A stretch of DNA of 64,000 bases from Eubacteriales Family XIII. Incertae Sedis bacterium (GCA_031261345.1 JAISKC010000063.1:7490-71489), one strand, 5' to 3'; shown: positions 8,445-57,749, numbered from the stretch's first letter. Numbers and translations: made by a program. The notes: generated by a model not told the origin, from the sequence alone.

Positions 8445-8460
8445 AATTTCTACTCCTCCT

Positions 8461-38641: not shown

Positions 38642-40198
38642 ATGAGGGATCCGTACGAAATATTAGGAATACATAGGACTGCGACTCTTGATGAAATCAA
38701 GGCTGCTTACAAGAAGTTGGCTAAAGAGTTTCACCCTGATAAGCATCAGGATAATCCTTTGAAGTATTTGGCAGAGGAACAGATGAGGGAGATCAATGAA
38801 GCCTATCAGTATTTGACTGGCAAGAGTCAGAATTTTAATTATAAGAAAAGCTATACTCACAAAAGTAGCACAAGTACCAATAACAAAGCTAATACTGGCA
38901 ACAATACCAACACAAATTCTAATTCAAAATCCAAGGAGAGCCACAAATCTTCATCGTCATATGACAAGGATGGTTACGACAAAAGTGGCTATGACAGAGC
39001 TGGATACAACAAAGCAGGTTATGATAAAACTGGCTTCGACAGGTCAGGGCAAGATAAAGACGGCTATAACAAAACTGGCTTTCGCGATGGATATAATCGC
39101 GCAGGTTATGATAGTGACGGATACAATAGAAAAGGATATGACTCCTTAGGCTTTGACCGTTCGGGATATGATAAAGACGGATATGATAAACGAGGTTATA
39201 ACAAGAAAGGGTATGACCGCGCAGATTTTGACATAGATGGATATGATAGAAATGGTTACAATCGATCCGGATATGATAAAAGCGGGTTTAATAAAAATGG
39301 TTACAATCGCGAAGGCTACAATAGGGACGGCTATAATTGGAGCGGATTTGACCGAGATGGATATGACAAAGAAGGCTTCGGGCATAATGGAATAAATCGA
39401 CAGGGAGAAAGCATTGAGGATGTCGCCAAACGCATAAAAAAGAAACGGCTTCAGATGATTATTATTGCAGGGATGTGTGCAGCCACCATTTTTGCAGGGG
39501 TAAACATCAAACCTATTCTTGACTATAAAATCGCGGTTGGTTTGCTTGATGCGGAGAAGTATCAGAAGGCAATCACAAAGTTTGAGGCTATGGGTGATTA
39601 TAAGGATAGCAAAGTAAAAGCACAAGAAGCATTAAAGACCGCATTTAGCATAACTGACGTGCACGTGAGAGGTTTTGGAATTGGCGATACGATCAAATTT
39701 GGAACTTTTGGCAATCGTGTGATTGAATGGGAAGTACTATTGGTTGAAGAAAATAGAGCACTATTGGTTTCTAAAGATTGCGTATCTCAACTGGCATATA
39801 ATCAAGAGTATAAAAGAGTAACATGGGAGCAATGCTCCGTAAGGCAATGGTTGAATAATTACTTCTATAATAGATTAGAATCACATCAAAAGAACTTGAT
39901 TATTGAATCTGAGATTGAAAATGAAGACAATGAAGAATCCAGAGGTGGCAATAACACGAAGGATAAGATATTTCTGTTGAGTTTAGAAGATGTAAAGACA
40001 TACTTTAAAGACAATGAATCACGAAAAACATATTATCATGGAATTTCAGCCAATTGGTGGCTTCGGTCTCCTGGCTACGGAAGTCGTGACAATTATGCCT
40101 CAATAGTTGACATGAACGGCATCTTTAACAACTCCGGCTTCCCTGTCAGCTATGGACTTGTCGGTGTTCGCCCAGCGTTGTGGTTGAGTTTGGTGTGA
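38642..40198 (+). CDS. J-domain membrane protein with pentapeptide-repeat array and DUF6273-like C-terminal domain
   Basis: J domain [32 protein letters not shown]. About 29 G-[YF]-[DN]-[KR]-x repeats. TM segment [17 protein letters not shown]-terminus contains WWLRSPG...GVRPALWL. Confidence 0.8.
38960..39400 (+). repeat. in-frame 15-nt tandem repeat array (~29 units) encoding GYDKS-like pentapeptides
   Basis: [41 protein letters not shown]...[21 protein letters not shown]. Confidence 0.85.
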
Positions 40199-40437: not shown

Positions 40438-40471
40438 ACAAAAAGGCACGGCCCCATTAAGAAGCCGTGCC
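40438..40471 (-). terminator. rho-independent terminator of surface-protein gene A
   Basis: On the minus strand, GGCACGGC-11 nt-GCCGTGCC is followed by TTTTTGTTG. It lies 60 nt after the stop at 40531. Confidence 0.7.
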
Positions 40472-40530
40472 CATTGCGGACATAACCCGCAATCCATCAG
40501 TTATAACTGAAATTGTTGCAATCCGTCTCG

Positions 40531-43500
40531 CTAGTTTGCCATCGCGCCGCTGTAGTCTATCTTCTCGTTGTCGTCATCCACCTTGTTTCTTAGCTTGTAG
40601 ACGATGAACGTTACGATATGGGCGATGAACACGATGCCGACAAAGAGCGTCCACTTGTTGATCCAAACCATCGGAAGGCTCAGGTCGTCGAAGACGAAGA
40701 AGGTTATCGGCGTCAGTATACCGAAGACAATCGTCAGGACTCTCGCGATGAACGCATTCCTTTCCTTTCTCACCACTTCGGTGCCCGCGTATCTCTCGAT
40801 GTCATTGTCCTCAAATCTGCGCTTCGCAATCTGCCAGACGACCATAAGTATCGAGATGATGATGGCAGCCATCGACATGATCAGCGACAGTAGGCTCCAC
40901 GCACCCTTTCCAAGGAAATTGCCGAGCGGCACATTGCCGTTTGCAAGGTCCGAGAAGAGGTTGCCGGTCTGCGACTCAAGCTTCTGCTGAGTAACCGCAT
41001 TGAAGCCCTCAAAAGCGGTGGCCGTGTTCGTAGGTGTCTCTGAAACGTTCGCATTCGGGCTATTGCCCGCTGATGGGTTCACCGGCGGATTGGTCTCGGG
41101 CTCGGGAGTCTCAGCAATGACTTCATCCCACTGTGCAGTCAGTGTCAAATCCCCTGCCGGCATGGTCAGGGCAGCACCCGATTGATACGTTCTGCCATTT
41201 GAGCCGTTCCAAGAAACAAACTCCCAACCCGTGCGTGCGGGTACCTGCGAAGATACCGTATATGAAGCACCCTCAAGCAGGTCTGAAGTTCCGCTCGGAA
41301 GTCCGGTCACGCCCGTTCCACCCGAAACGTAGCTGACCGTATAGGTATCGGGCTGCGGCGGCTCCACTATCACCTCATTCTGTTTCCAGACAGCGTAGAG
41401 ATTCACATTTTCAGTAATGGTAAGGCTTTCTCCGCCGGTATAAGTCGCCGACGTAGCTGTCGCGCTCTTCGACCAACCAAGGAACTCATGTCCATCACGA
41501 GCAAGTGTATTCACACCCGCCACGGTAGCTTTGCCGCCGTGAATATACGTCTCCGCCTTAGGTGCCTCACCCGACGTGTGAGCGTTTCCATCATACGTTA
41601 CGGTATGACTATCAAGTCCATAGACCGCGTAGAGTGTCGTATTATCCGTGATGGTGAACTCCTTCGTTCCGTCCACTTTGTAATTCGGTGTAGTAGCATT
41701 GGCTTTTGTCGCCCAGCCGGTGAACACACGGTGACTCTTCGTCGGCAGTGGCGTGAACAGCACACTCACCTTATCGCCGTGGTGATAATCCACCTTGCTA
41801 TCTGTAGGTACAGAGCCAGTGCCCCCATTAGCCTTGTATGTTACTGAGTAATTGTCGATTTTCCATTGTGCCACCAAAGTGATGTTGTCTTCGACCGATG
41901 TGATTGTAGCCTTGTTCGCGTAATTGCCCGTGCCATAGCTCGCGCCACCGTCTGTGTATGTCGCCAGCCAACCGTTGAAGTGATAGCCGACCTTCTCGAA
42001 AACATTCGCGGGAATCTTATAGCTCTTGCTGTGTTCTACATTGAGTGCAGAAGTCATAGTGCCGGCTGTCTTCCCATTTCCATCGAATGCAACGGTGTAT
42101 TTGTGCGGAATCCACTTCGCATAAAGCGATAGAGTCGGATCCCCATTTGCACCTTGAACTCCATTCGCGATATTGAGCACAGTACCGATGTTCGCTGCAC
42201 CAAATTCCCATTCAGTGCCGGCAGGACTATTTACATGCCAACCGTCAAATGTATAACCGGTGCGCGTCGGCTCAATGTCCGGAGCACCAGTAATGGTGGC
42301 ATCATATTCGGCACTTTCCTCCTTGGTAGCAAGAAGAGAATCGTCGTTTTGGTCGGTGTAGAGCGTTTCGCCGAGATAATGATAACTGATTTCTACATCC
42401 TTTGCTTCCCACTGAGCTGTGAGCGTCACAGAACCAACCGTGTCAGCTCCTGCAAGCGTTGAATAGGTCGGGTTCAATTCAGATGTATAAACGTTTCCGT
42501 CAAAGTCCGTATCACCGCGATTCGTGAGCTTCCATCCCTTGAAATCATACCCTGGCTTGGTGATCTGAGTTGCTGACGGGAGGAAAACCGTATCGCCCCA
42601 ATGTACAAACGGCACGGGATTGGTGACAGAGCCATCAAACGTTCCGCCATCTGGCAGATACCACACGGTGTATGAATATTGCGACAGCGAAGCCGTAAAT
42701 GTCACAGCCTCGGTGATCTTTGCCTGTAGCAACTGCGTACGATTCATCGGTGTTCCTGCATTGATAACGGTATTGCTACCATCGTTCAGCGTGACTGCCT
42801 TATTCGCCGTCCACACTACTGTTGCCGGATTGTATCCAGTGATAGTGTTTACACCTTGGAATATCGGCGCAATGGTAGGTGACGGCTGTTGATTGTAATT
42901 TTTGTATTCACTTGTCTGAGGAAATGTTGCACCTGTGCCCGCTTTATATGTCACCTCAGAAGCTGCCTTGAGACCTACTCCTGCAAGCTGAGTCTGAGGT
43001 GAGCTGGAGCCTACCGTAAATTCATAAGTGGCACTCGCATGACTTGTAGAGATATTCGACTGAAGAATATCCATATGCCAATCATAATCGGGGCTTGAGC
43101 CTGAAGACCTGTCACTCGGTGTATTTGGAGTAAAACCTCTCTGTACATCGTCGTTGTATATTGTCAAGGTGTAGTCTCCCGCCTTGAGATAATATGGAGT
43201 GCCGCCGGAGGTGAGGGAGGCAAAGTCGCCATTGTCTTCCACATCTATATTGAGCAGACTGATGGTATCTCCCGCAAGAGTTGCACTCACACCGCTCAAT
43301 CCTGTGAATGATTCTCCGGCATCTTTAATTCCATCCACGTCGAGATCGTTGAAGACGTTGCCTATTACACCAGCGGTAGCCGGCTCTGCGGCAAGTATCG
43401 AACCAAAGGTCCATACGCTTGAATCGCCGTCAGCTTGTTGCCATCCTTTCTGGTAACTGCGCCAATAGTTGGGCTCTCCCATAGGTGCGTTGTTGTCAAC

Positions 43501-46500
43501 TGCCATTTCAAAGGTTGTAAAGCCTTTTGATCCCGATTCTCCGACTTTAGCAATCTGTCTGTTTGCCACGAACTTGACCATCGTTACATTTTCATATGTG
43601 TCAACCAGTCCTTCTATAGCACTTGCATCTACCCATGGTCCGTCATATGGGACCCAGTCCTTATCTACATTCCCTCCATAATTGGTTGTGCTTGATGTAC
43701 TAGTACTATAGTATGTATCAAAGCCGTCAAGACTTATCGGTCCAGTAAGATTGCCGGTCCATTGCGGCTCAGAAACCACCACATTCCCTGATGGATTTGT
43801 GATTTCCTTATTGTTGAAATAGTGATCGTAATTTATGCCTTCCTTGGGGATGGACAGATAGATTTCAGATCCCTCATAATAACTTCCCGTAGATGTATTT
43901 TCATACTGTAGCCAGATCTCTGCATTGGCATCGGGTGTAACCGGTGCCACGGTTGCAGCAGTACCATTATATGTATAATAAGGACCTGTATCGCCTACGG
44001 TGCGAATACCCAAAGAGATGGTCAACCCTTGTTTCTGCAATACGGCGATATTTTGGCTGCTGGTCGCCGCTGCCAATTTGTATGCAGTGCCTTTCCCTGC
44101 CCAATTATTGGCATCTGCAACCGATGTGCCACCGCCATCAGCTGTTGCAGACTTTCCAAGGTCATATAATACAATATCTTTGGCAAACAACTCCGGATAT
44201 TTCGCTACTGCACTCGATACATTGGCGGAAAATTTGAGAGTGAAGACATTGCTGACAAATCCATTACCGGCCATGTTACTACTGGCATTGGCGATAATGT
44301 CATTTGGATTATATACAGCCAAATGATACGTAGTCCACGGGACACTATTGACCAATTTGGTTTCTGAACCTTTTAATTGTAATTTGAAAGGCGTATCAAC
44401 ATGATTGCCCGCTTTTGAAACTACCCGAATGCTATCCACATCCAAATCAAGTCCTTCAGGAAGTGAAATATAGACATCCGGATCTTTAATGTCCTGACTG
44501 GTTCCGACATATCTATCGGTAGCGTTATATACGCTGGTAAAATACATCGTATCATCAGGGAAAAATGTTCCGTTTTCGGTCGTTGAGCTTTCACTGTGGC
44601 TGGCAACCGTAGTGGTATCGCCAGCGCGAACATTGTCCCACCTTATAACCGGAGTCCCTGTTGATGTGTAGGTGTTACCCAATGCATCAGTAATGGTCAG
44701 TGTCACAGGACCACTTTTGCCGTTTTGGAAACGACCGTAAAAGAATCCGCCCATGCTGACATAAGTGTTGTTATACCTGCCAGGACCTAATTGTGGCTGC
44801 GTAAATGTCATATCAAGAAGGTATTCATCTGCTGCGAGCCCAAGGAACTCCGCCCGAATCATGCTGGCACCCAATCCGGAGTTTATTGCACCCACCGGCA
44901 GTGTGCTGGTTCCTGACTTCGTTATTGTCCTCCCTTTGTTTGTATGTGCAACCAAATCTTTGATTCGATTGTTGTTCGCAAGGCCATTATTCGTGGAATA
45001 GGGAATGCTGATTGCTCGGATTGCCAGATTTGGGCTGAATGTATATTCATAGACGGCATTGGGTGCAGCAATTGAGCCCCAATTTTCAATATAAAATTGA
45101 CCTAAGGCATAGTCATATGGATAGTCTCCATTTTCGTTCAAATCACGACGTGCATTATTTAGCAGCCCCCAAATGCCAAGTTTAACATTTGGCGTTGACG
45201 GCGTGACAGTATAACTTGTATTGCGCAAAGGATGTACCTGTGGGTCGCCCCCTAAGGTTCCCGATGTTTCCACATATGTACCATTGAAGACAATGCCCTG
45301 GCCCCATTTAAATTGAGAGTTATCAATGGTTACGCCGTCCCAGTACAATCTGAATTGCGTATCTGCTGCGATAGTTGTCTTGTCCATTGTAAAGGTTATC
45401 GTGCGATTTGATGCATCATGTACAACTGAAAGGTGTGAGCCATATGTTGCACTTGTTGTATCGGTTGGATGATTGAATCCATCGATATAAAATCCCTTAT
45501 ATGTCACGCCTTCCGGATAGGTTATTGTCATGACGGAGTGATCGGAAAAGTGTCTTCCAACAGCCCCGTGACCTAATTTAAATACGGTTGAGAATGCGGC
45601 AATCGTGCCCTTGGTTGCATCCTCTGTATTTACAGTTCCCGCAAGAGATAGAGTATCGCCGGTAAAAGGTGTCACAGGAATTCCTGTTACAGTTGTACTC
45701 AAATGATCGCTAAAGTTTTTATCGCCGCTCTTCATGGTGACGGTAATGTCATTCATGGAAGCAGTTGTAGCGTTATGGGGGAGAAGCATTTCGTCCAATT
45801 CGAGGGTGAGCACCATGGCAACTTGGGTTACATTGGAATTGAACGTATAGACAACTTTCCCATCGTAATTTCGATATGATTCTTCGGTGTTATAATAAGG
45901 CTTGTTATACCCTGTTATGAGTTGAGATGCCCAAGCGGAGCCATCAAAAGCGGTTAGATCCGCACTTGCTATCATGGCATCGTCCTGAGCTGATAGACCC
46001 AGTTTGCCAACGCCATCAATATCCGCCGTAGTTTCTTTTGCCGTGTACTCGGTGATTTTATATCCCTTTGGAATTATTATTTCAACTTTTCTTTCCTTGT
46101 CTGAACCCTGCCCAGAAAACTTGGCTGTGATTTCTATCTGCTTTTGTCCGAAAGTTAATGGCCAAGTAATGGCATTATTAATGCCGGAGTCATCCACATC
46201 TACAAATTCTGGAGTGGAAACCTTTAGTGTTAGACTGTCATCAGAATCACCCTGAGAGAGTGAGCCAATCTCACCCTGTGTGGATTCCGGCTCGGAGCCC
46301 ACGTTCGCGCCTGTGCCCTCACTGTCATTGCGGGCTATGTGCCCCAACGGGGTATGACCCGCAATCCATTGTTCGTTTGGAAGCGCGTCCTCCGGCAGGT
46401 TTGTCTCCGTTTGATTTTCGGGTATTGCTACCTCTACCGTCTTAGTGACCTCATCATTTACCGAGGGGTCTACAGAATACCCCCCCCCCATTGGAAGAAT

Positions 46501-46603
46501 CTGCCATTACAAACTGTGGCATCACAGCTACGAATAGCATAATTACGGTCAAAATTACCGCCAGTACCCTCTTTTGATTTCTAATACTCCCTAAATTAGA
46601 CAT
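40531..46603 (-). CDS. giant surface protein A (InlB-B/Listeria-Bacteroides-repeat protein), reading frame broken at a G10 tract as sequenced
   Basis: - Track ORF 46454..46636 supplies the RBS (GGGGAGGA), ATG 46603 and a signal peptide (KRVLAVILTVIMLFVAVMPQFVMA/DSS).
- The 1986-aa ORF 40531..46491 has no signal peptide, and the two frames meet inside the G10 tract.
- Domains: SdrD-B-like VIGNVFNDLDVDGIKDAGE and 6 Flg_new-type repeats (GYDFKGW, GYTFDGW, GYHFNGW, VFTGW, HEFLGW, WEFVSW).
- It has three C-terminal TM segments and no LPXTG. Confidence 0.8.
46480..46489 (-). repeat. homopolymeric G10 (coding strand) in gene A
   Basis: Counted directly: 10 consecutive C on the plus strand. Confidence 0.95.
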
Positions 46604-46791
46604 TTTCTTGTCCTCCCCTGTTTCGTCGCAAAACACGACAATTACATAAAATTAATTTTTATTGGATTTTATTCGACATCAAAATGTAGAACGAATCCCC
46701 AAGTTCTATATATACAGACACTCCTCTCTCAAAAAACACGTCCATGTAATCGCACTTTCAATAAAGAAAATTTATTTTGATTACTATAATT

Positions 46792-46820
46792 AATATACCC
46801 AAAAAAACGCGTTTGAAACA
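46792..46820 (-). promoter_or_regulatory. putative promoter of gene A (motif shared with gene B)
   Basis: Minus strand reads TGTTTC-17 nt-TATATT with GGG directly upstream of the -10. The same geometry and flanks occur at 57667-57695. It lies about 190 nt upstream of the ATG. Confidence 0.45.
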
Positions 46821-46964
46821 TGAAAACACAAATTTGTCAAAAAAATTACAAAATCTTTACAATCACGTAGCTCCGCAATTATTGGAGGGGGTGCTCTACT
46901 CGCAAATAGATATTTCCGAAATAGGTTGACTTTTCACTATATTACAGTTAAGGTTAGAGACATA

Positions 46965-47042
46965 AGCAGTGACGTGTTCACTGTCTGGGCTGGTCGAAAG
47001 ACCCTGGTCCACCCCATGGCGGAGAATGTCTCCGCCTTTTTT
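46965..47042 (+). ncRNA. candidate structured leader or small RNA upstream of a DUF3800 gene stub
   Basis: Possible promoter TTGACT (46926) with a 17-nt spacer to TAAGGT. Hairpins CAGTGA-cgtgt-TCACTG (46967-46983) and GGTC-GAAA-GACC (46992-47003). It ends in the terminator hairpin GGCGGAG-aatgt-CTCCGCC followed by T6 (47018-47042). Confidence 0.3.
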
Positions 47043-47060
47043 ATTGAAAGCGTGTAAATC

Positions 47061-47140
47061 ATGAAAGAACTAAGCATATTCGTCGACGAGTCCGGTGACT
47101 ATGGAGAATATGATTTTAAGTCTCCCTATTACATCGTTTG
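47061..47140 (+). pseudogene. 5' stub of a DUF3800-family gene
   Basis: MKELSIFVDESGDYGEYDFKSPYYIV matches the DUF3800 N-terminal IF(I/V)DESG motif. The similarity is lost after about 27 aa and the HD-GYP gene's 3' end follows at 47191. Confidence 0.5.
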
Positions 47141-47190
47141 TCCCGTTTCAACGGTTCGATTTAGGAATATCCAAGCAAACAGTCAGCGCA

Positions 47191-47877
47191 CTATGCGGTT
47201 CGCAAAAGGGGAGCTGTGTGGACGGCCTCGAACGCGTCCGCCACGCTGGCGAAAACCGACACCAGTTTCGGGTCGAAATGGGTGCCCGAGCCATCTATGA
47301 TGATGCTCTTCGCTCTCTCAGCAGACATCGGCTCCTTGTAGGGACGCTTTGAAATCAGAGCATCGTAGACATCTGCTATAGCCATGATCCTGCCGAGCAA
47401 TGGGATTTCATCTCCGGAGAGCCCGGCGGGATAGCCGCTGCCGTCCCACTTTTCATGGTGAGTGGCGGCGAAAACCTTCGCATTTTTGAGAAAGTCGCTC
47501 TCACTCGTTTGCTCCTCAATCCGCTCAATCACCTCAACGCCGATAGTCGGGTGCTTCTTCATCACATTGAATTCCTCTTCCGTCAACTTCCCCGGCTTCT
47601 TGAGAATCGTATCGCTGATGGCGATCTTGCCCACATCGTGAAGTTGCGCCGATGGCAGGAGAAACTGCGAATCCCAACAGCTGATTTCATCGCAGTACAC
47701 GCCTTGCCTCTTCATTCCATCCAGCAGCACTTCAAGATATTTCACGGTTGCACAACTGTGATCGCCCGTATTGCTATCACGGAATTCCACCATCTCCACC
47801 AGCGTAGTTATTATTGCCTTCTGCAGTTCCATCACCTGTGCCTTCAATTTCTTTTCCGTAATATTCATAGTGTTCAT
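47191..47877 (-). CDS. stand-alone HD-GYP domain protein (cyclic-di-GMP phosphodiesterase family)
   Basis: HDVGKIAI and HHEKWDGSGYPAGL motifs. GGGGG RBS. Confidence 0.85.
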   Translation of the reverse strand: MNTMNITEKKLKAQVMELQKAIITTLVEMVEFRDSNTGDHSCATVKYLEVLLDGMKRQGVYCDEISCWDSQFLLPSAQLHDVGKIAISDTILKKPGKLTEEEFNVMKKHPTIGVEVIERIEEQTSESDFLKNAKVFAATHHEKWDGSGYPAGLSGDEIPLLGRIMAIADVYDALISKRPYKEPMSAERAKSIIIDGSGTHFDPKLVSVFASVADAFEAVHTAPLLRTA

Positions 47878-48024
47878 AGCATTACCCCCATGTTTCTTGA
47901 CGTTGTTCCTGTTCTGTTTCTGTGATTTAATAAATTTATATCAAAACGAATTGTCGCGGACTACACCCCAAGATTTTTTTTTAAATAAGTAATTTTGGGG
48001 TGATGTTTGCGACAGACATAGCGG

Positions 48025-48030
48025 TATAAT
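48025..48030 (+). promoter_or_regulatory. TATAAT box 6 nt upstream of the LuxR-family ATG (possible leaderless mRNA)
   Basis: cggTATAATaaaaacATG with no Shine-Dalgarno sequence. Confidence 0.35.
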
Positions 48031-48036
48031 AAAAAC

Positions 48037-50592
48037 ATGGTTACACAATCGACAATAAATGTGCCGGTAATTCCGGACAATAGCCTTGTTTTGCTCGACA
48101 GGCCACGCATAGACGGCCTCTTGTCTTCCGTGCTCAGTAGCCCCGTGGCGACCATCGTTGCAGGATCGGGCTATGGCAAAACTGAGGCGGTCTACTCATT
48201 TCTACGGAAACAGGATCTCACGATCATCTGGGTGCAGGTATCGGAGCACGACAACGAAATGACAAGATTTTGGGGCGATTTCTCCGGTGCCATTTTTTCG
48301 GCTAACAAAGATCTCTCAAAGCAAATGTTAGATATGGGCTTTCCGTATGACGGCATATCGTACAACAAATATGCCGACGCTGTATCGGACGCCTTGACCG
48401 TTACGAGAAATTACGCCCTCGTGATTGACGACTTTCACAATATTCACAATCCCGATATTTTGAAGTTTTTCGAGAGGGGTCTTCAGATGCCTCTTGCAAA
48501 TATGCACCGCATATTCATATCGAGGGAAAACCCGAGTATCGTAACTGCAAACTACCTACTTACGGATCATTTCGCCCATCTAAACGAGGATGATTTGCGG
48601 TTCACAAGAGATGAAATGAAACAGCTTTTTGCCCTTCAAGGGTTGAAACTTTCGCCAGATACAATAGAGAAAATCTATTCCGACACTGACGGCTGGGTCT
48701 TTGCCATACAGCTCATCGGCTTGTTTTTCAAAAGGAATCCCGGGCAGATAGGCTATGCAGTCGATGCGATGAAGTCGAATGTATCCAAGCTGATCGACAC
48801 GGAAATCTTCTCTGAGATTCCCGAAAAATTACAGCATTTTCTGATCAAAATGTCTCTGATAAACCACCTTTATCCCGATTTGCTCCGTGGGCTTGATGAC
48901 GGCGAGGCATGCATGAACGAGCTCCGCAAAATGGACTCCTTTGTCAGGTATGACGACTATTTGAACACCTATCGTATCCATCAGCTGTTCCTTGACTACC
49001 TGAAGGATAAGCAGCGGCTTTTGTCCGAGCAGGAGAAACGCAGCACGCTGGATGTTGCGGCAAACTGGTGTCTTCTTCAAGACGACATTTCCGAGGCCAT
49101 TCACTACTACGAAGAGCTCGGCGACTATGACCGGATTGTGGAACTCGCATACAAGCAGTCGATGCTCTTGCCGCAGGGTGTCGGCTCCTACATATTGAAC
49201 ATTTTTCGTAATGCGCCTGCCGAAGCGTTTGAGCGAAACGGAACGATGACGGTCGTATTCGCCAGGCTTTTGATAGCTCTCGGTCACATCAAAGAAGGCG
49301 AAAACTTTATCACATCTACGATAGAAAGGTATGAAAAATTGCCTGAATCTGGCCACAAGGATCGCATCCTCTGTGGGCTATACAACAACCTCGGGTTTCT
49401 CGGTTTGATAAAGAGTCCGACCACGTCGGAATATGATTTTGCGGCTCACTTTATGCGTGGCGATGAATACTTCAGAAAATGCGACATCAAGGTGCTCGGG
49501 GCGGTTCGGTCTGTAAATCTCAGCCCTTACATTACTAGGGTCGGGAAACCGGAGGCGGGCGGACCGGAAAAATTCATCGAAGCGGTCTCGGAATCAATCC
49601 CATATATCTCACATTCCATGAATGGCTGCATGTACGGCATGGACGATCTGGCACGCGCCGAGCTGTCGTTTTTCCGAGGTGAGCTTGAAAATTGCGAGCA
49701 GTTTTCGTTCAGTGCCCTCTACAAGGCGAGGGAACGCAGTCAATACGAAATCGAAAATCGCGCCCTGTTTTTCCTCCTGAGAACAAATCTGGCGAACGGA
49801 AAATATGAGAAGGTCCGCTCCATTCTCTATCAAATCGAGGCTCAACCGGAGATGTCCGACTACGCGACAAAGTATTTCATGAAGGATATACTGACGAGCT
49901 GGTTTTATGCACAGATTGGTCACACCGAGCGTATGGCCGACTGGATTACTAAGGACTTTGAGGAGTCAGAGGACAACTATCTGACGCGCGGACTGGAATT
50001 TTTCACAAAAAACAAATTCTACATGGTCGAAAAACGTTACCACAGACTGCTCGCAATTCTGGAAAGTCAAGACACCGAATTGGGCATCGGCTCACTCCTC
50101 TACGGAAAAATCGGAATCATGACGATGAAGGCAATCTGCCTCTATCACCTCAAGGAGCGCAAGGCGGCACTCAGGGCCTTCGAGGAAGCCTACACGCTGG
50201 CGATTCCAAACGCCCTCGACATGATTTTCATTTCAATGGGCAACGACATGCGCGTCTTGAGTGGGTACGCGCTGAAGAACGCCTGCAACATTCCTAGGGA
50301 CTGGCTGGAGACGATAGGGCGAAAATCATCCACCTGCGCAAAGCGGTATGCTCACATCAGATCCAACTTTGACAGGGACGAGGAACTGAGTAATGAAGTG
50401 AACCTATCGAGTAAGGAACTCGAGGTTCTCACGGATTTGGCGCACGGACTGTCCAGATCGGAAATCGCAACCGCACGAAACATTTCCATCAACACGGTCA
50501 AGACCATGCTGCCCCTCATCTTCCGGAAACTCGACGCGAACAGCACAATAGACGCCATACGAATAGCGGTCAAAAGCGGAATTGTGAAGTGA
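48037..50592 (+). CDS. MalT-like large ATP-binding LuxR-family regulator
   Basis: N-terminal P-loop AGSGYGKTEAV and Walker B ALVIDDFH. Central helical/TPR-like region. C-terminal LuxR HTH LSSKELEVLTDLAHGLSRSEIATARNISINTVKTM. Confidence 0.85.
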   Translation: MVTQSTINVPVIPDNSLVLLDRPRIDGLLSSVLSSPVATIVAGSGYGKTEAVYSFLRKQDLTIIWVQVSEHDNEMTRFWGDFSGAIFSANKDLSKQMLDMGFPYDGISYNKYADAVSDALTVTRNYALVIDDFHNIHNPDILKFFERGLQMPLANMHRIFISRENPSIVTANYLLTDHFAHLNEDDLRFTRDEMKQLFALQGLKLSPDTIEKIYSDTDGWVFAIQLIGLFFKRNPGQIGYAVDAMKSNVSKLIDTEIFSEIPEKLQHFLIKMSLINHLYPDLLRGLDDGEACMNELRKMDSFVRYDDYLNTYRIHQLFLDYLKDKQRLLSEQEKRSTLDVAANWCLLQDDISEAIHYYEELGDYDRIVELAYKQSMLLPQGVGSYILNIFRNAPAEAFERNGTMTVVFARLLIALGHIKEGENFITSTIERYEKLPESGHKDRILCGLYNNLGFLGLIKSPTTSEYDFAAHFMRGDEYFRKCDIKVLGAVRSVNLSPYITRVGKPEAGGPEKFIEAVSESIPYISHSMNGCMYGMDDLARAELSFFRGELENCEQFSFSALYKARERSQYEIENRALFFLLRTNLANGKYEKVRSILYQIEAQPEMSDYATKYFMKDILTSWFYAQIGHTERMADWITKDFEESEDNYLTRGLEFFTKNKFYMVEKRYHRLLAILESQDTELGIGSLLYGKIGIMTMKAICLYHLKERKAALRAFEEAYTLAIPNALDMIFISMGNDMRVLSGYALKNACNIPRDWLETIGRKSSTCAKRYAHIRSNFDRDEELSNEVNLSSKELEVLTDLAHGLSRSEIATARNISINTVKTMLPLIFRKLDANSTIDAIRIAVKSGIVK

Positions 50593-50617
50593 AGCCATTG
50601 GATAGTCGTTTTCTCCA

Positions 50618-51787
50618 TTAGGCGTCGCCGGAATAGTTGCCTATCACAAATGACCTTTCCAGAATGACGGACTTATCGTCCCTGTTTGGAAGCGTACACC
50701 TTAGGAGATATTCCCCATCATGTTTCTGACCGACAAGCCTGTCCAGCTCAGTGCTCACAGTGGCTTCGTCGCCTGAAAAAACCACGGCACCATCCGCCTC
50801 GGTTACTATTTCCCAAACCTGCGTCCCATCACCTTCCAGAAGATTCACAGCTTCAAATCCCTGTGGATTGATATGACCACATTCACAATCATCGGAGATA
50901 AGGAGAATTTCACGCCCGCCCGAATCAACCAAAATTCCAGTCGCAGCGTCCTCTGAATTACTGAGTGATAGACCCGCAAATGCGATGCCGGAGACAACGA
51001 CCATTGTCGCTATCAAACCAACTACGAAATTCCATATCCGCGGCTTCCCTGCGGCAGGCAACGCCTTACCATCGATTGCGCCCATCCATTTCTGCGCAAA
51101 CAAATCCATACTTTCGTCCGGCAGGCTGTTCATCGCCTTGAGCCGTAGCGACTTGCCCATGACCGTGGACGTGGCAGGAAGACCAGCTCCCGCGCCGCCC
51201 AGACCCACGCCGAGCAATGTGCCGATATTTTCACCTTCCTGTGTAAGTTTTTTCTTCAACATCATTCTCGCCTTCGTAATATTTGAGGAAACTGACTTTT
51301 CCGAGATTTTCTGAACTTCCGCGATTTCTTTGTAACTCAACCCCTCATAGTAATACATGATGATGGCATCACGCTTCGCCGCGGAAAGCGAAGACACATA
51401 TCCGTATAGCTTTTCACTCAAGGCAGAATCCTGTGCATACGCTTCAGGCAGAAATTCCCGATTTTCCTCTTCGAGGACGATGTCTTCATCTTCTATGTCA
51501 ATTTCCTTCTGTTTGCGCGCGTGCGTCCTGAATATCGCATAGCACTCATTTCTGACAATCCGTTCAATCCAGACATTGATAGCAACCGGATCCTTGAGCC
51601 TCCGAATGTTCTTGTGCATCTTCAAGATGGCCTCTTGTGCAGCATCTTCAGCGTCCGGATAATTTCCCATGACAGACAGCGACACGAACATCATGTCGCG
51701 CTGCTTCGCAAGGCACAGATCCTCAAATGCCTTCAAATCACCCTTGATGGCCTTCCTTGCCAATTCAACGATTTCCGCTTTAACCAA
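50618..51787 (-). CDS. sigma-70-family (ECF-like) sigma factor fused to a TM segment and extracytoplasmic C-terminal domain
   Basis: Region 2 DAEDAAQEAILKMHKNIRRLKDPVAINVWIERIVRNEC. Region 4 AIIMYYYEGLSYKEIAEVQKISEKSVSSNITKARMMLKKKL. TM segment IWNFVVGLIATMVVVSGIAFAGL followed by about 110 aa. TTG start. Confidence 0.75.
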   Translation of the reverse strand: MVKAEIVELARKAIKGDLKAFEDLCLAKQRDMMFVSLSVMGNYPDAEDAAQEAILKMHKNIRRLKDPVAINVWIERIVRNECYAIFRTHARKQKEIDIEDEDIVLEEENREFLPEAYAQDSALSEKLYGYVSSLSAAKRDAIIMYYYEGLSYKEIAEVQKISEKSVSSNITKARMMLKKKLTQEGENIGTLLGVGLGGAGAGLPATSTVMGKSLRLKAMNSLPDESMDLFAQKWMGAIDGKALPAAGKPRIWNFVVGLIATMVVVSGIAFAGLSLSNSEDAATGILVDSGGREILLISDDCECGHINPQGFEAVNLLEGDGTQVWEIVTEADGAVVFSGDEATVSTELDRLVGQKHDGEYLLRCTLPNRDDKSVILERSFVIGNYSGDA

Positions 51788-51861
51788 TTTCCCCTCTATT
51801 CCCCTTTACTACCTTAGATGCAACCAAGCAAGATTACCCTGCCATTTTCCTCAACTTTCAC

Positions 51862-51890
51862 GTGGCTACCAGTGGCTACCAATAGCTACC
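51862..51890. repeat. three direct repeats with exact 10-bp period (GTGGCTACCA GTGGCTACCA ATAGCTACC)
   Basis: Read directly from the sequence. They lie 75-100 nt upstream of the sigma-factor start and just after the stop of gene B. Confidence 0.8.
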
Positions 51891-51918
51891 TAGGAGCAAG
51901 CTACACAGCACGCTATTC

Positions 51919-54900
51919 TCATGCAATCGCTCTATTTCCCTCTTCTTCGTCCTCCGCGTATTCATGTTTCCTGACTTTGTAAACAACGAGCACTACGATA
52001 TGCAAGATGAAGACTATGCCGACGAAGAGCGTCCACTTGTTGATCCACGCCATCGGCAGGCTCAGGTCGTCTAGGATAAGCCAAACAATCGGTGTCAATA
52101 TGCCGAGGATAATAGTGGCAACCTTCAGCATCTTTCCACGCCTGCGACGTTCTTCCTCCTCATCGCGAACCCCGCCATCCCGTGCGTAGCCCGTGAGCTC
52201 ATCTTCATTATCTTCACGCCTCTTGCGGGCGATAGCTCCAACAATCAACAGTATCGAAATAACGACAGCCACCAGGGACATGATGAGGCTGAGTAGACTC
52301 CAAGCATTACTGGAGAAGAAATTCCCGAGCGGAACGTTGCCGTTTGCGAGGTCGTTAAATATATTGCCCGTCTGTGCGTCATACTTCGCCTGATCCGATG
52401 TAACAGGTGAAATCTCATTAGTAACCGTTGGAGGATTCGCCGGTGGGTTCGCTTCAGGCTCCTTTGGCTCCACAATGACCTCTTCAGGTTCGGGAGTGAT
52501 ATCCATAACACGATTCACAATCGGAGGATTGACGACCGGCGGCTCCACTATCACCTCATCCTTCTGCCAAACGGCATAGAGCTCAACATCCCGCGTCAGC
52601 GTGACGACATTTCCCTTCGGGTGGCTCACAACGCCGGAGACTGCACCCTCAGCCCAACCGAGGAATGAGTAACCATCCCTTGCGAGCGTGTTCTGCCCAT
52701 TCACTATGACTTGACTTCCGTGACTGAGAGTAACAGCGTCCGGAGCCTCACCTGATGTATGTCCATTGCCATGATAAGTCAGGCTGTGGCTATCGGGCCC
52801 ATAAACCGCATAGAGTATCGCATTTCCAGTAATATTGAAGCTTTTCGTCCCCTCCACCGTGTAGGTCGGCGCAGTAGCTGCCGCAGTCTTCGCCCAACCG
52901 AGGAACACGCCATGATCCTTCACAGGCAGTGGCGAGAACTGAACCTCCACATTATCGCCATTATGGTAGTCAACCTTGCTATCCGTAGGCACAGAACCCG
53001 TGCCCCCATTGACCTTGTAGACAACACTGTAATTGTTGATTGCCCACTGCGCAGTCAATGTGATATTCTGTGTTATCCCATTTATCGTCCCAATCGTGCC
53101 ATATGCGCTAGGCTCACATGGCGATCCGCTATCTGTAAAGGTAGCTATCCAACCCGTCAAATGATGATTTTGTAATGAAAACCCGTTTGCCGGTATATTG
53201 TAGTTTTTCCCATAGGCCACATCGCCGGGAAGCATATATCCAAATCCACCATTACCCTCAAAAGTAACTACATAGCGCAGCGGCTCAAGACTTGCAGTGA
53301 ACGTGATATTCTCCGTGATCTTCGCCTGAAGCACCTGATCGCGGGTCAATACAGAGCCTGCACCTTTGACCGTATTATTGCCATCGTTAAGCGTTACAGC
53401 CTTATTTGCTTTCCAAACAACCGTGGTATAGTCATAACCCACTTCTACTCCTTGAGCTACGTTGACTACAGGAACGACGGATGCCGTAGGCTGCTGATTG
53501 TGATTTCGATATTCACTTTCGGTAGCAAACGAAGCTCCCGTTCCGGCCTTATACGTAGCGAGTGCAGCATCATGCAAGCCGACGCCCACGAGTTCCGTAG
53601 ACAATGTAGTGTTGGAAACCGTGAAATTGAACGTGGCGGAAACATGAGTATTGGACACATTTCCCTGCGGCACATCCATGTACCAGTGATCCACAGCACT
53701 TCCTCCTACGCCGGTGGTATTTGACCTCGTTCCCGATGTTGTAGTCGTGAAGCCCCTCTGTATACTCTCATCAAAAATCGTGAGCGTATACTCCCCCACT
53801 TTGAGATAGTAAGGTGTCAGCCCGTTTGAGCTAAGCGAGGCAAAACTGCCATCTGGATTCACAACAATATTCAAGAGCGAAATCGTCCCTGTTTGGGAAG
53901 TGAGCGTCGCACTCACATGGTCAAGATTTGTAAAGTTCTCTCCTGCATCTAGGATTCCATCAGAGTCCTTATCATTGAAGATTTTGCCCTTGACGCCAGC
54001 CATAGCAGGCTCCGCCGCCAAGACAGAACCGTAAACCCAACTACCTTCGCCGGCAGCCGTCCTCCAACCCTTCTGATAACTCCGCCAGTAATCAGTCTGC
54101 CCAAGCTGCGCATCGGAAGCAACCGCGACATCAAATGTAGTTTCGCCCGAGGACCCCTCTAGCCCTGACGCCGCTATTGTTTGATTCGCCACAAACTTGA
54201 CCATCGTTACATTGGCGAAATCGCCTGAAAGGTCGGAAACCTGCGCGGCTGTAAGCCATTCGCCCGCGTAGGGTTTCCATGCATTGATTACTTCTTCCGC
54301 CGAGCCACTTTCGGGAGCAGGATTCGTCGTTCCCGAAGTGCTCACGCTATAGGTCGCCGTGAAGCCCGGAAGAGTGAGCGGACCGGTCAGCAAGGCTGTC
54401 CAAGCCGGTGCTTCATTCGTCTCGACTCCATATGGATTCGTCGTCTCAATATTGTTGAATATTCGATTGTAGCTCACGTTCTTCTTGGGAATAGGCAAAT
54501 AAATTTCCGTGCCTGGATAGTATGTATCGCCAGAGGTGTTTTCATACTTTAGCCAAACCTCGGCCGGCCGGTCGGGAGTAACAGGAGCCACTGTGGCATC
54601 ACTGCCATTGTATGTGTAATATGGATCAGTGTCGCCTGCCGCACGAATGCCGAGGTAAACATTGAGCCCGGGCTTTTGAACCACGGCGATGTTGTTGGAA
54701 TATTTCGCACCAACCAGATTGTAGCCGGTGCCATGCCCAGCCCAATCGTGGGTATCCAGCAAAACGCAATCCTCTGAACCATATGTTGCATTCACGGCAG
54801 ATGTTCCCAAATCAAGTAGGACGATATCCTCTGGGTCCAGCTCGGGAAAAGCGGTGGCGGCACTTGATACCTTAGCGGTGAAATATAGTGCTGATTCACC

Positions 54901-57483
54901 CGGGTTCCCTGTCATGTTCTCGGCTTCAGATATAATATCCTGATGTGCAGGTGCCCTAAAGTGATATGCTATCCATTCAACACCATTTATCAGTTTCGGC
55001 TCAGAAGAGCCAAGAAGTGTCAGCGGAAATTCTGCATCGCCATGATTGCCGGCAGACGAAACGGCTCTTGCACTATTCACATCCAAGTCAATCCCTCTTG
55101 GTAGTGCAACATAAATATCGGGGTCAACTATGTCAGCACTGTCACCATTCCACGTACGACCGCCATAAAACCATGAATTAATATACATCGTGTCGCCCGG
55201 ATAAAATGATCCCGTATTTGTGCCATCTGGATTATGACTGGCTACGGTATACATAGAACCGGCACCCTTGTTTGATGTAGCTTTGCTCGTCGTTGCATAA
55301 CCGGTTGCAAGCACACCTTCATCCTTGTCCTTGATGGTTAGATTGACGGTTCCGGCCTGACCGTTTTGAAGCCTTCCATAATACGTTCCGGCACCATAAG
55401 TCCAATATTCATCGTTGCCGCTTGCATAGACCGATAGACGGTCCTGTGTAATAGTAAGGTCGGTCAAGAATTCATCTTCGGCTAGCCCCAAATCTTCCGG
55501 CGTGAGTGCGTAAGCATAGTTGGTCCAAGGTAGTGTGAAAGACGTTGAATACGTTATTGTTCGTGTTGCACCGGATTTCGTCTTCGCATGTGCAACGACA
55601 TTTCTGAAGTGAGAGTCATTATACCCTCCCGGAATCCTAATCCCACGTACGGCAAGTGCATCATCAAAAGTATAGAAGTATGTGATATCCTCAGCAATAC
55701 TCGGGCCATCGTTCATGACAACGAGCTGCCCCAGACCATAGTCGTGAGGATAATCCCCGTTCCAGTTGAGATCGCGCCTTGTTCCATCGCCAGATTCTAT
55801 TCGTATGTTGACATTCGGTTTCTGAACGGTCACCCAAGTTACCACCGGACCATAATTTTGGACTACTGGATGACCTGACTCAAAGCCAGAGTTGGCGACA
55901 TATTCGGCAGGAAAAACCAAAGTATCATTCCATTTTATTAGGTCGTTATCTACTGAGCCAGTCCAATATAAGACAAAAGTATTTCCGTAACCAATAAGGA
56001 CGTTTGTATAAGAGAAAGTCACAGTTCGTGCCGTGGGATTGTCCTCTACAAGTAGATGTCCGTTGGCGTAGCTGCCGGTCGTTCCGCCTTGTTCGTTTAT
56101 TCCTTCCCAAAATCCCTTGAACTCAAGACCCTCAGGATAGTGAAATGTAAATGTTGCCGAATCTGATAAGAAATCATCAGAAGACCAATTCTGATTGATT
56201 ACAGTAAATCTTATGGAAAATTGCGGTATTTCACCTTTATCCTCATCCACATCCACAATCCCAGCTACGGTCGGGGTCTGGTCCTCATTGAATTGATTCA
56301 CCATCTGAAACTGCATCATATTTGTAGAAGTTGCCACCAGTTCATCTGACAAATTTGCGGCTCCACTCACAAGATCCACTGTAATGGCATCCAGTACGGC
56401 GGTATCGGTAGCTCTCGAAAGCATAGCGTACTGAAGATCGAGGGTAAGTGTCAACACGATGTGATCGCAGTTTGAATTGAAAGTGTAAGTCACTTTTCCA
56501 TCGGAATTATGAGGCTGCAAATCATTCGGGCCATATCCTGCATACCCCAAAACCACTTGATCTGCCCAAGATCCGCCATCAAGCGCTGTAAGAGATGCAC
56601 TTGCAACCTTGGACTCCGACTCCGAAGACAAATTTATCTTAGATACCCCTTCGATTTCAGGAGTACTCTCCTTCGCCGTGTATTCGATTATCTTGTATCC
56701 ACGTGGCACATTGACAGTGATGATTCGATCCTTATCCGTGCCCTGCTCCGAAAAGTCAGCTGTGATACGAATCTGCTTATTGCCACTTTTCCATGGCCAG
56801 TCGATTGCGTTTGATATACTACCGACTTCAACAAAAGCCGGATTGGAAACCTCGAATGTAAGATTATTACCATTACCATCGGTTTGACTCAAAGGGGCAA
56901 CATCATCACCAAGCACATCAATGTCCAGTTCCTGCACTATGGATTGGTCTTTATCATTGTCATACTGCACTTCACCCACTGGAATAAGGTCTTCAAATGC
57001 CGCTTCAAACGTGGTGTCCCTCGATACGACAAATTCACCGATAGGAGCATAGCCCTCTGTTACTGCCAGCCTTTCGTCAGCCGTGTACATAGTTTTGCTT
57101 TCATCTTGGGTATCTATCCAGCCAAGGAATCGGCTGTTTTGGGATTCGGGGATGAAGTCCAAAATGACTGTTTCTTCATCGCTTTCAGATTGCGAATCTT
57201 GGTCCGCAATGACGGATTTTACCTCTTCATCTGTCGGGAGAATGTCCATCGGCAAGTTTACTTCTACTTGTCCTTCAGGTATCGCAACTGCCTCCGTCTT
57301 AATAATATTGTCATTTACTGTAAATCTTAGAGAATATACCCCCCCCCCATTGGAATTATTTTCCAGTTCGTTATCTGTTGCCATAGCAAACTGTGGTAAC
57401 ACAATGCCTAGCAACATTACTATTGTCATTGTGATAGCCAGCCACCGTTTGTGACCCAAAGTACGATTTGTATTAGTATTCAT
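51919..57483 (-). CDS. giant surface protein B (paralog of A), intact
   Basis: - ATG 57483 is preceded by GGGGGGAA, and the signal peptide is KRWLAITMTIVMLLGIVLPQFAMA/TDN.
- The N-terminal ~1000 aa are collinear with A.
- Domains: SdrD-B-like GKIFNDKDSDGILDAGE and 4 Flg_new-type repeats.
- It has the same C-terminal 3-TM anchor (NVPLGNFF..AWSLLSLIMS). Confidence 0.85.
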   Translation of the reverse strand: MNTNTNRTLGHKRWLAITMTIVMLLGIVLPQFAMATDNELENNSNGGGVYSLRFTVNDNIIKTEAVAIPEGQVEVNLPMDILPTDEEVKSVIADQDSQSESDEETVILDFIPESQNSRFLGWIDTQDESKTMYTADERLAVTEGYAPIGEFVVSRDTTFEAAFEDLIPVGEVQYDNDKDQSIVQELDIDVLGDDVAPLSQTDGNGNNLTFEVSNPAFVEVGSISNAIDWPWKSGNKQIRITADFSEQGTDKDRIITVNVPRGYKIIEYTAKESTPEIEGVSKINLSSESESKVASASLTALDGGSWADQVVLGYAGYGPNDLQPHNSDGKVTYTFNSNCDHIVLTLTLDLQYAMLSRATDTAVLDAITVDLVSGAANLSDELVATSTNMMQFQMVNQFNEDQTPTVAGIVDVDEDKGEIPQFSIRFTVINQNWSSDDFLSDSATFTFHYPEGLEFKGFWEGINEQGGTTGSYANGHLLVEDNPTARTVTFSYTNVLIGYGNTFVLYWTGSVDNDLIKWNDTLVFPAEYVANSGFESGHPVVQNYGPVVTWVTVQKPNVNIRIESGDGTRRDLNWNGDYPHDYGLGQLVVMNDGPSIAEDITYFYTFDDALAVRGIRIPGGYNDSHFRNVVAHAKTKSGATRTITYSTSFTLPWTNYAYALTPEDLGLAEDEFLTDLTITQDRLSVYASGNDEYWTYGAGTYYGRLQNGQAGTVNLTIKDKDEGVLATGYATTSKATSNKGAGSMYTVASHNPDGTNTGSFYPGDTMYINSWFYGGRTWNGDSADIVDPDIYVALPRGIDLDVNSARAVSSAGNHGDAEFPLTLLGSSEPKLINGVEWIAYHFRAPAHQDIISEAENMTGNPGESALYFTAKVSSAATAFPELDPEDIVLLDLGTSAVNATYGSEDCVLLDTHDWAGHGTGYNLVGAKYSNNIAVVQKPGLNVYLGIRAAGDTDPYYTYNGSDATVAPVTPDRPAEVWLKYENTSGDTYYPGTEIYLPIPKKNVSYNRIFNNIETTNPYGVETNEAPAWTALLTGPLTLPGFTATYSVSTSGTTNPAPESGSAEEVINAWKPYAGEWLTAAQVSDLSGDFANVTMVKFVANQTIAASGLEGSSGETTFDVAVASDAQLGQTDYWRSYQKGWRTAAGEGSWVYGSVLAAEPAMAGVKGKIFNDKDSDGILDAGENFTNLDHVSATLTSQTGTISLLNIVVNPDGSFASLSSNGLTPYYLKVGEYTLTIFDESIQRGFTTTTSGTRSNTTGVGGSAVDHWYMDVPQGNVSNTHVSATFNFTVSNTTLSTELVGVGLHDAALATYKAGTGASFATESEYRNHNQQPTASVVPVVNVAQGVEVGYDYTTVVWKANKAVTLNDGNNTVKGAGSVLTRDQVLQAKITENITFTASLEPLRYVVTFEGNGGFGYMLPGDVAYGKNYNIPANGFSLQNHHLTGWIATFTDSGSPCEPSAYGTIGTINGITQNITLTAQWAINNYSVVYKVNGGTGSVPTDSKVDYHNGDNVEVQFSPLPVKDHGVFLGWAKTAAATAPTYTVEGTKSFNITGNAILYAVYGPDSHSLTYHGNGHTSGEAPDAVTLSHGSQVIVNGQNTLARDGYSFLGWAEGAVSGVVSHPKGNVVTLTRDVELYAVWQKDEVIVEPPVVNPPIVNRVMDITPEPEEVIVEPKEPEANPPANPPTVTNEISPVTSDQAKYDAQTGNIFNDLANGNVPLGNFFSSNAWSLLSLIMSLVAVVISILLIVGAIARKRREDNEDELTGYARDGGVRDEEEERRRRGKMLKVATIILGILTPIVWLILDDLSLPMAWINKWTLFVGIVFILHIVVLVVYKVRKHEYAEDEEEGNRAIA
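57339..57348 (-). repeat. homopolymeric G10 (coding strand) in gene B, in frame
   Basis: Counted directly: 10 consecutive C on the plus strand. It encodes GGG plus the first base of the Val codon. Confidence 0.95.
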
Positions 57484-57666
57484 TTGATTCCCCCCGTATA
57501 TAAAGAGTAGTATTGTTCTACAAACGCACAAAAACCTGTGTCATTTGCCCCCGTCGGCGAATCCGACAGTTCTATGATGTCAGAGGCCACAAATTCCCTG
57601 CCATTATCGGAAAAAAATTTGAGCCAACAACATCCTCAAGCATTACAACCCAATTGTCGTACTTAA

Positions 57667-57695
57667 TATATACCCAAAAATCAGGGCTTTAAACA
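57667..57695 (-). promoter_or_regulatory. putative promoter of gene B (motif shared with gene A)
   Basis: Minus strand reads TGTTTA-17 nt-TATATA with GGG upstream of the -10. It lies about 185 nt upstream of the ATG. Confidence 0.45.
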
Positions 57696-57749
57696 TAAAA
57701 TCCAATATTTTTACGAAAAATTTACTGTACTATACAAAAAGTTTGCTCT

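Follow-up and report, generated by a model that had tools for sequence, protein, structure and literature searches.

Here we describe a 64,000-nt stretch of one contig (the window, taken at its full length) from an Eubacteriales Family XIII. Incertae Sedis bacterium, in which two giant surface-protein genes, A and B, bracket a stand-alone HD-GYP phosphodiesterase gene, a MalT-like LuxR-type regulator gene and a gene for a membrane-tethered sigma factor of the extracytoplasmic function (ECF) type. The original prediction, made from the sequence of the window alone, had placed these five genes correctly and had read them as a self-contained module with its own regulatory kit. That reading does not survive a search of the window's own genome (G000, a 2.4-Mb assembly in 91 contigs), where A and B are two of ~42 giant secreted members of one family, part of a genome-wide system, and the sigma factor is one of 27 paralogs. 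We lean towards the explanation that the window samples this genome-wide surface-protein system, and that its tethered sigma factors would read a promoter motif shared by the family.

Results

The features of A, B and the sigma factor gene are as follows.

40531..46603, minus strand: giant surface-protein gene A (open reading frame [ORF] and translation), predicted to be phase-OFF in the assembly
46480..46489, minus strand: G10 tract of gene A, just past the signal-peptide cleavage site (sequence and translation)
46794..46821, minus strand: family promoter motif upstream of A, ATGTTTCAAACGCGTTTTTTTGGGTATA
40573..40899, minus strand: FILTED C-terminal three-helix membrane anchor of A (NF052597, 74.6 bits against a cut-off of 40)
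40444..40472, minus strand: terminator-like hairpin with a T-run after gene A (12-pair stem with 8 G-C pairs, then TTTTTGTT)
51919..57483, minus strand: giant surface-protein gene B (1854 aa from the ATG at 57483), predicted to be phase-ON
57339..57348, minus strand: G10 tract of gene B, in frame, reading NGGGVYS
57669..57696, minus strand: family promoter motif upstream of B, ATGTTTAAAGCCCTGATTTTTGGGTATA
51958..52302, minus strand: FILTED C-terminal anchor of B (NF052597, 84.1 bits against a cut-off of 40)
50618..51787, minus strand: membrane-tethered ECF-type sigma factor (389 aa, sigma2 and sigma4), one of 27 paralogs
50969..51025, minus strand: single transmembrane helix of the sigma factor, residues 255-273 (hydropathy scan)
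50621..50920, minus strand: extracytoplasmic Ig-like domain of the sigma factor, residues 290-389 (alignments; AlphaFold2 [AF2] mean predicted local distance difference test [pLDDT] 87.7)

The main ORF of gene A (40531-46491, minus strand) comprises 1986 aa, and its true start, the ATG at 46603, encodes a signal peptide. Gene B, for which ORF calling gave a TTG at 57531, likely starts at the ATG at 57483, and a signal peptide is present there as well. The two proteins share 43% identity across ~1500 residues and both carry Listeria-Bacteroides (InlB B) repeats (PF09479) according to Pfam, whose matches in A comprise six to Flg_new, one to Flg_new_2 and weak ones to SdrD_B and pAdhesive_6. As had been predicted, the giants lack an LPXTG sortase-substrate motif; none occurs in A, and B holds just an internal LPWTN. 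The last ~110 residues of each protein match the NCBIfam model NF052597 ("FILTED domain-containing surface protein"), so that what had been called an unusual anchoring mode is an already named domain. Hydropathy scans bore out the three predicted C-terminal helices (residues 1867-1885, 1915-1933 and 1949-1967 of A; 1746-1764, 1802-1820 and 1835-1853 of B), but the AWSLLSLIMS stretch, which had been described as preceding them, starts the first helix. A literature search on the FILTED domain found no paper that uses the name.

At the curated cut-off of 40 bits, 36 of the 44 FILTED matches in G000 are significant, most of them in open frames of 1100-4500 aa, and an independent iterative search of the genome recovered 42 FILTED ORFs, which amount to 181 kb or 7.5% of its DNA. 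When 40 sampled relatives were compared with G000 (41 genomes in total), the domain was present in six of the 40, most with one or two copies, and in eight copies in G001, a genome of another genus that is 72% complete. Across the order it occurs in 4 of 301 genomes, counting G000, and named homologs belong to the assemblies "Clostridia bacterium AGMMS49983" and "Clostridiales Family XIII bacterium."

Searches of G000 with phmmer collected 27 paralogs of the window's sigma factor (377-451 aa), all of one architecture, and a Sigma70_r2 search for all sigma-70-family genes returned 31, so that the tethered paralogs are 27 of them; seven sigma genes lie at contig ends, as do many giants. Of the 27, 20 are found no more than 3 kb from a FILTED gene (mean 4.2 and maximum 12 when positions were randomized 2000 times), and 12 lie within 300 nt. 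Some follow a giant gene as in the window, with gaps of 29-254 nt; elsewhere the order is sigma gene, promoter motif, giant gene. Sigma paralogs that are further apart in sequence adjoin FILTED domains that are further apart as well (Mantel r = 0.67, p ≤ 2e-4), and the sigma and giant genes therefore appear to have been duplicated as units. Among the 41 genomes, the sigma ectodomain was found only in G000 (29 matches) and G001 (10 matches), which are also the genomes where the FILTED family is expanded and motif sites are numerous. Counts of FILTED domain, sigma ectodomain and motif rise together from genome to genome (44/29/31 in G000 and 8/10/9 in G001, with a mixed 1/0/1 in a third genome, G019), and in the remaining 38 genomes the ectodomain occurs in none, the FILTED domain as one or two matches in three, and the motif as one to three isolated matches in four. 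The adjacency of sigma and giant genes also recurs beyond G000, as the original prediction had proposed to check: a FILTED gene is followed by a sigma gene on three contigs of G001, and the nearest orthologs of the sigma factor under study, at 52-56% identity, adjoin a 2161-aa FILTED giant on a metagenome contig from Family XIII. A cross-species contig scan with the sigma alignment returned 80 generic ECF loci, none with a FILTED domain or the sigma ectodomain. These sequence comparisons make the link between sigma factor and surface protein well supported, as a genome-wide rather than a local one.

The sigma factor itself conforms to what had been predicted, a sigma-70-family protein with a transmembrane helix and an extracytoplasmic domain, encoded directly downstream of B. 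Its profile matches are PF04542, PF08281 and PF04545, each above threshold, and TIGR02937 (91.1 bits, cut-off 42.9); sigma2 and sigma4 are its only sigma domains, and the best PDB fold matches of its model are SigW, AlgU, SigE and CnrH. By these matches it is an ECF (group 4) sigma-70 factor. Lysine and arginine before the transmembrane helix fit an orientation with the N-terminus in and the C-terminus out. In the full-length AF2 model (mean pLDDT 79.7), built from 26 sequences and resting, as do our other structural inferences, on shallow alignments, sigma2 and sigma4 are confident, the transmembrane region is poorly modeled, and two linker helices (residues 209-241, pLDDT above 90) and a C-terminal beta-sandwich with one helix are again confident. 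By hydropathy and model, the protein carries a C-terminal extension of transmembrane helix and extracytoplasmic domain (folded from 290 to 386) on the same polypeptide, as sigma/anti-sigma fusions do. With Foldseek, the model superposes on anti-sigma-bound ECF factors (SigW-RsiW, CnrH-CnrY, RpoE-NepR) at TM-scores of 0.72-0.79 and on polymerase-bound ones at 0.35-0.40, which points to a self-inhibited state, with sigma2 and sigma4 in a closed, anti-sigma-bound-like arrangement. No zinc-finger anti-sigma (ZAS) motif was found in the protein. The recognition helix of sigma4 (KTVSTN) is conserved across the paralogs, and a gene for an M50 site-2 protease is present in G000.

Paralog alignments and the model place an invariant Asn307-Pro308 of the ectodomain (50864-50869) between predicted strands 1 and 2. 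An RsgI-like autoproteolytic domain was considered on this account, but Foldseek against PDB gave no match to RsgI or to a SEAL domain and found just weak Ig-like, PKD and CopC matches (E ≥ 0.006). The likeness to RsgI is kept as an analogy because the fold does not match. Homology of the ectodomain to a domain inside the giants was likewise rejected, since its profile had no significant match in A, B or other giants of G000; its matches in a global library are generic tandem Ig-like repeats.

The linker, transmembrane helix and Ig-like ectodomain of the sigma family also occur alone, as proteins of 218-230 aa (G000:C37:41930-42586, minus strand; C45:7-699, plus strand; L146:1611-2291; L149:4725-5396). 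Three of these four genes (C37, L146 and L149, in G000 and two other assemblies) are divergent from a full tethered sigma gene. The stand-alone proteins could be decoys or separate anti-sigma partners. A third pair of a FILTED gene followed by a tethered sigma gene lies just past the right end of the window on the same contig (G000:C71:76871-80414), where the giant is cut by the contig end.

The upstream regions of A and B have one block in common, ATGTTTMAA-N12-GGGTATA, which has ~50 sites in G000, compared with 0 matches for a reversed-pattern control. Its spacing is fixed in 35 of 39 sites (an offset of 20 from TGTTT to GGGTATA), and conservation reaches as far as ...TATATAnAGTA. For 26 FILTED genes the assembly includes the upstream DNA, and the motif precedes 19-20 of these. 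The sigmaW promoter is TGAAAC-N16-CGTA, and we take the family motif, written as TGTTTC-N16-GTATA, to be ECF-like in format; a simple promoter scan reads the site of B as TTTAAA-17-TATATT (9/12). On contig C32 of G001, the motif lies 94 nt upstream of a tethered sigma gene, the classic layout of ECF autoregulation. Clade-specific promoter variants that would match the sigma clades were sought by eye and none was seen. Sites away from the giants include one at G000:C8:8057-8098, upstream of the ORF at 8166-8981 that encodes the heat-shock repressor HrcA, and those preceding two paralogous hybrid histidine kinases (G000 C1:16119-17879 and C23:26267-28459).

Poly-G tracts had been proposed as a further layer of expression control, and their distribution, read from the assembly, agrees with this. 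The length of the G10 tract of A puts the signal peptide out of frame with the 1986-aa mature frame, and the tract of B leaves its frame intact; as the sequences read, both genes carry a frame-setting homopolymer tract inside the reading frame. In ~24 FILTED genes, the 5' end contains a run of 8-11 G, always on the coding strand, and similar runs follow several other motif sites. Of the 59 G/C homopolymer runs of at least 8 in G000, about half are located either at FILTED 5' ends or a short way past a family-promoter site. The tracts are a trait of the family as a whole.

The terminator-like hairpin after A was graded strong. In the 131-nt gap between gene B and the sigma gene, a terminator-like site was searched for and none was found, and B is therefore probably cotranscribed with the sigma gene.

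The other two genes between A and B form a divergent pair.

47191..47877, minus strand: stand-alone HD-GYP phosphodiesterase, 228 aa (HD_5, PF13487, 110 bits), divergent from the LuxR-type gene
48037..50592, plus strand: MalT-like STAND/LuxR regulator, 851 aa (Walker A GSGYGKT; GerE helix-turn-helix [HTH], 40.7 bits)

Both were correctly named in the original prediction. The HD-GYP protein contains the HDVGK and HHEKWDGSGYP motifs and no other domain, and by domain and motifs it fits the class of HD-GYP phosphodiesterases of cyclic-di-GMP (c-di-GMP). The regulator, which we call LuxR and whose gene runs convergent to the sigma gene, combines the Walker A motif with MalT-like repeats and the GerE HTH. 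It scores 168.6 bits over residues 4-372 against the MalT equivalog model NF003420 (cut-off 537) and 27.4 bits against TPR_MalT (cut-off 45); judged by these scores it is MalT-like in architecture only and is not a MalT equivalog. LuxR is single-copy in G000, and HD-GYP has five paralogs, one of which lies within 500 nt of a giant (P = 0.41), so that the proposed tie of HD-GYP to the giants finds no enrichment behind it. Orthologs of LuxR (E ≤ 1e-125) occur among the 40 relatives only in G001 and G019, and G000, G001 and G019 are the three sampled genomes in which the motif lies beside a FILTED gene. G001 has the same divergent arrangement, with a LuxR ortholog of 37% identity facing away from a stand-alone HD-GYP ortholog, and the next gene is rlmN, not a giant; this neighborhood is readable on the rlmN side, and the other side of LuxR abuts the contig end. 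Because G001 keeps the pair and then continues with rlmN, LuxR/HD-GYP is a conserved pair in its own right. Of the dedicated sigma/activator pair that had been proposed, a link of the sigma factor to giant genes is supported by proximity; a dedicated activator is not supported, as LuxR is single-copy and has HD-GYP as its conserved partner. G000 has six GGDEF genes, and c-di-GMP signaling is therefore in use there. A search with Rfam models found no c-di-GMP riboswitch in the whole window at the gathering threshold, nor, at a permissive threshold applied only there, over 46400-48100 (the leader of A). The pair is not dedicated to A and B; as a separately conserved divergent pair it would be at most a global input to the surface system, possibly one linked to c-di-GMP.

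Several neighboring features were also recorded. A DUF3800-XI RNA (RF02975; 46986-47033, plus strand; 59.5 bits against a gathering threshold of 37.8), which was the sole match of the Rfam searches, is found on the opposite strand, in the interval from the HD-GYP gene to the promoter of A, and has a terminator-like hairpin at its end. A REC-HD-GYP gene elsewhere in the genome (401 aa, G000:C50:50911-52116) shares 44 nt with the 3' end of the gene for a FILTED giant, which suggests cotranscription. Immediately downstream of gene A, the window encodes a DnaJ-DUF6273 protein (38642-40198, plus strand), and in G019 an 816-aa DUF6273 protein (L032:16211-18661) is encoded three genes away from the LuxR ortholog. 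A gene pair for a LiaF-TM-domain protein and a LytTR DNA-binding protein (59059-60325, minus strand) is inserted between hypD and hypF.

Discussion

The local reading is corrected by these results, in that the regulators between A and B are no private kit. The mechanism that we favor for the genome-wide system can be outlined as follows. The giants would be held in the membrane by their C-terminal FILTED three-helix anchor. The family promoter, ATGTTTMAA-N12-GGGTATA, would drive transcription of each giant gene, and the poly-G tract past the signal peptide would gate translation, with A predicted to be OFF and B to be ON. Judging from the model, the two linker helices of the sigma factor would clamp sigma2 and sigma4 closed, and the sigma domain would be kept inactive at the membrane until the ectodomain receives a cue from the envelope or the surface. 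Regulated proteolysis, for which a site-2 protease gene is available, would then release the sigma domain, and the freed domain would steer RNA polymerase to the family promoter. Since the sigma gene lies in the putative operon of B, with no terminator after B, positive feedback would be expected.

A number of observations count against this outline. In G000, the motif was looked for directly upstream of sigma genes and none was found. The same core motif stands beside all sigma clades, which makes locus specificity hard to account for. The one FILTED gene of G019 is preceded by the motif, and that genome has no member of the tethered sigma family; the exact motif was not found on the Family XIII metagenome contig. 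The closed conformation is a prediction from just 26 sequences. Finally, the motif also precedes hrcA, the two hybrid histidine kinases, LPXTG/leucine-rich-repeat proteins and an S8 protease, and the regulon, as predicted from its sites, is therefore broader than the giants, though centered on the cell surface.

The G019 pattern (motif, FILTED gene and LuxR, with no tethered sigma gene) keeps alive an alternative that we consider unlikely. Here the family promoter would be a weak housekeeping-sigma promoter, which LuxR activates by binding ATGTTTMAA (GTTTnAAAC) over the -35 region, HD-GYP would tune this activation through c-di-GMP, and the tethered sigma factors would act elsewhere. The coincidence of LuxR orthologs with motif-bearing FILTED genes in G000, G001 and G019 speaks for this, but three genomes carry little statistical weight and shared ancestry may account for the pattern. 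Many sites have a -35 element that forms a short palindrome, albeit one of just 9 bp, and the match of the B site to a 17-nt-spaced promoter (9/12) is compatible with a housekeeping sigma factor. Conservation of the LuxR/HD-GYP pair in G001 and the c-di-GMP signaling indicated by the six GGDEF genes also speak for an activator of this kind, whereas no motif lies upstream of the LuxR or HD-GYP genes and the riboswitch searches, permissive in the leader of A and at gathering threshold window-wide, were negative. Activation by LuxR also leaves unexplained both the 27 sigma factors beside giants and the G001 motif upstream of a tethered sigma gene, features that fit the sigma-read promoter that we favor.

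Alternatively, the tethered sigma factors may be sensors of secretion or envelope stress that were duplicated with the giants, report the load of export or folding, and induce a common stress and surface regulon that is not adhesin-specific. We consider this improbable. It would account for the motif in front of hrcA, a repressor of chaperone operons, the secreted S8 protease, the two histidine kinases and surface proteins, for the single core motif that serves all sigma clades, and for an ectodomain that is small, conserved and generic in fold rather than a varied ligand-binding domain. However, a single sensor would suffice for such a role, and 27 copies that co-diverge with their neighbors suggest pairing. 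The ectodomains, moreover, have diverged to 20-47% identity.

A bolder form of the sigma-read system is doubtful to much the same degree. Each tethered sigma factor would then be a feedback sensor for its own locus, whose Ig-like ectodomain reads the state of the neighboring giant (exported, engaged or under tension), and an Asn-Pro-dependent cut followed by intramembrane proteolysis would free the sigma domain. If true, a small genome could, by sensing at each locus together with poly-G gating, switch on and then reinforce a shifting selection of its ~42 adhesins, and the use of 27 one-component sigma sensors to build a variable surface would be a strategy not described before.

A self-contained module of A, B, HD-GYP, LuxR and sigma factor that serves these two genes is very improbable, for although the five genes are physically adjacent and B probably shares an operon with the sigma gene, the family counts ~42 giants and 27 sigma factors, a single-copy LuxR faces ~50 motif promoters, the G001 pair is followed by rlmN on its readable side, and HD-GYP genes are not enriched near giants. 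Bracketing by two giants is in any case not rare, because giants cover 7.5% of the genome.

If the link between the sigma factors and the family promoter holds, one surface-protein system takes up ~7.5% of the DNA and 27 of the 31 sigma genes of this small, gut-type Clostridia genome. Three layers would come together in it, namely a promoter class of its own, one-component sigma sensors tethered to the membrane, and slipped-strand switching. In nature, it would illustrate on a compact scale how a bacterium can build and vary its surface without LPXTG-type anchoring of the proteins concerned. It would also provide a large new set of fused sigma/anti-sigma factors, which could serve as orthogonal regulators.

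Each kind of component is known from other bacteria, whereas their combination and scale appear to be undescribed in the literature that we searched, in which no paper on this architecture was found. Fused sigma/anti-sigma factors that are activated by proteolysis include IutY and members of ECF48, ECF52 and ECF53 (PMC8999054), and regulated proteolysis is expected or shown to activate fusions of this type (PMC8999054, PMC7826278). With IutY of Pseudomonas putida (ECF243) and with ECF48/52/53 proteins such as SCO4117 of Streptomyces coelicolor, the window's sigma factor shares an N-terminal ECF part, a membrane-spanning C-terminal extension and an extracytoplasmic domain. Unlike them, it has no ZAS motif and no FecR-like or carbohydrate-binding domain but a two-helix linker and an Ig-like ectodomain of ~100 aa, and it comes from a Clostridia lineage, from a genome where its family of 27 paralogs, among 31 sigma genes, is placed beside giant genes.

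In having many paralogous membrane sensors with sigma factors near the genes of surface complexes in a Clostridial genome, the system resembles SigI/RsgI of Clostridium thermocellum, which regulates the cellulosome. In RsgI, cleavage occurs at an Asn-Pro that lies between strands 1 and 2 of the juxtamembrane domain (PMC10328401), and the invariant Asn-Pro of the window's sigma factor has the same position between predicted strands 1 and 2. In contrast to SigI/RsgI, the sigma and anti-sigma parts would here reside on one polypeptide, the sigma factor is ECF-type rather than SigI-type, and the ectodomain lacks both a fold match to RsgI or the SEAL domain and an appended sensor module. LuxR resembles the MalT/LAL regulators in its P-loop NTPase N-terminus, MalT-like helical-repeat middle and C-terminal GerE/LuxR HTH, and differs from MalT in its score (168.6 vs. 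537 bits) and in having a stand-alone HD-GYP gene as its conserved partner.

The poly-G tracts, finally, recall the contingency loci of Neisseria and Campylobacter, where tracts likewise lie in the 5' coding region of many surface-protein paralogs (here 8-11 G) and neighboring paralogs are in different phase states, as is predicted here from the assembly sequence. The present family departs from these loci in its very large proteins (1100-4500 aa), its Gram-positive-type lineage and its three-helix membrane anchor, and in that the switch comes together with a dedicated class of promoters and an enlarged sigma family.

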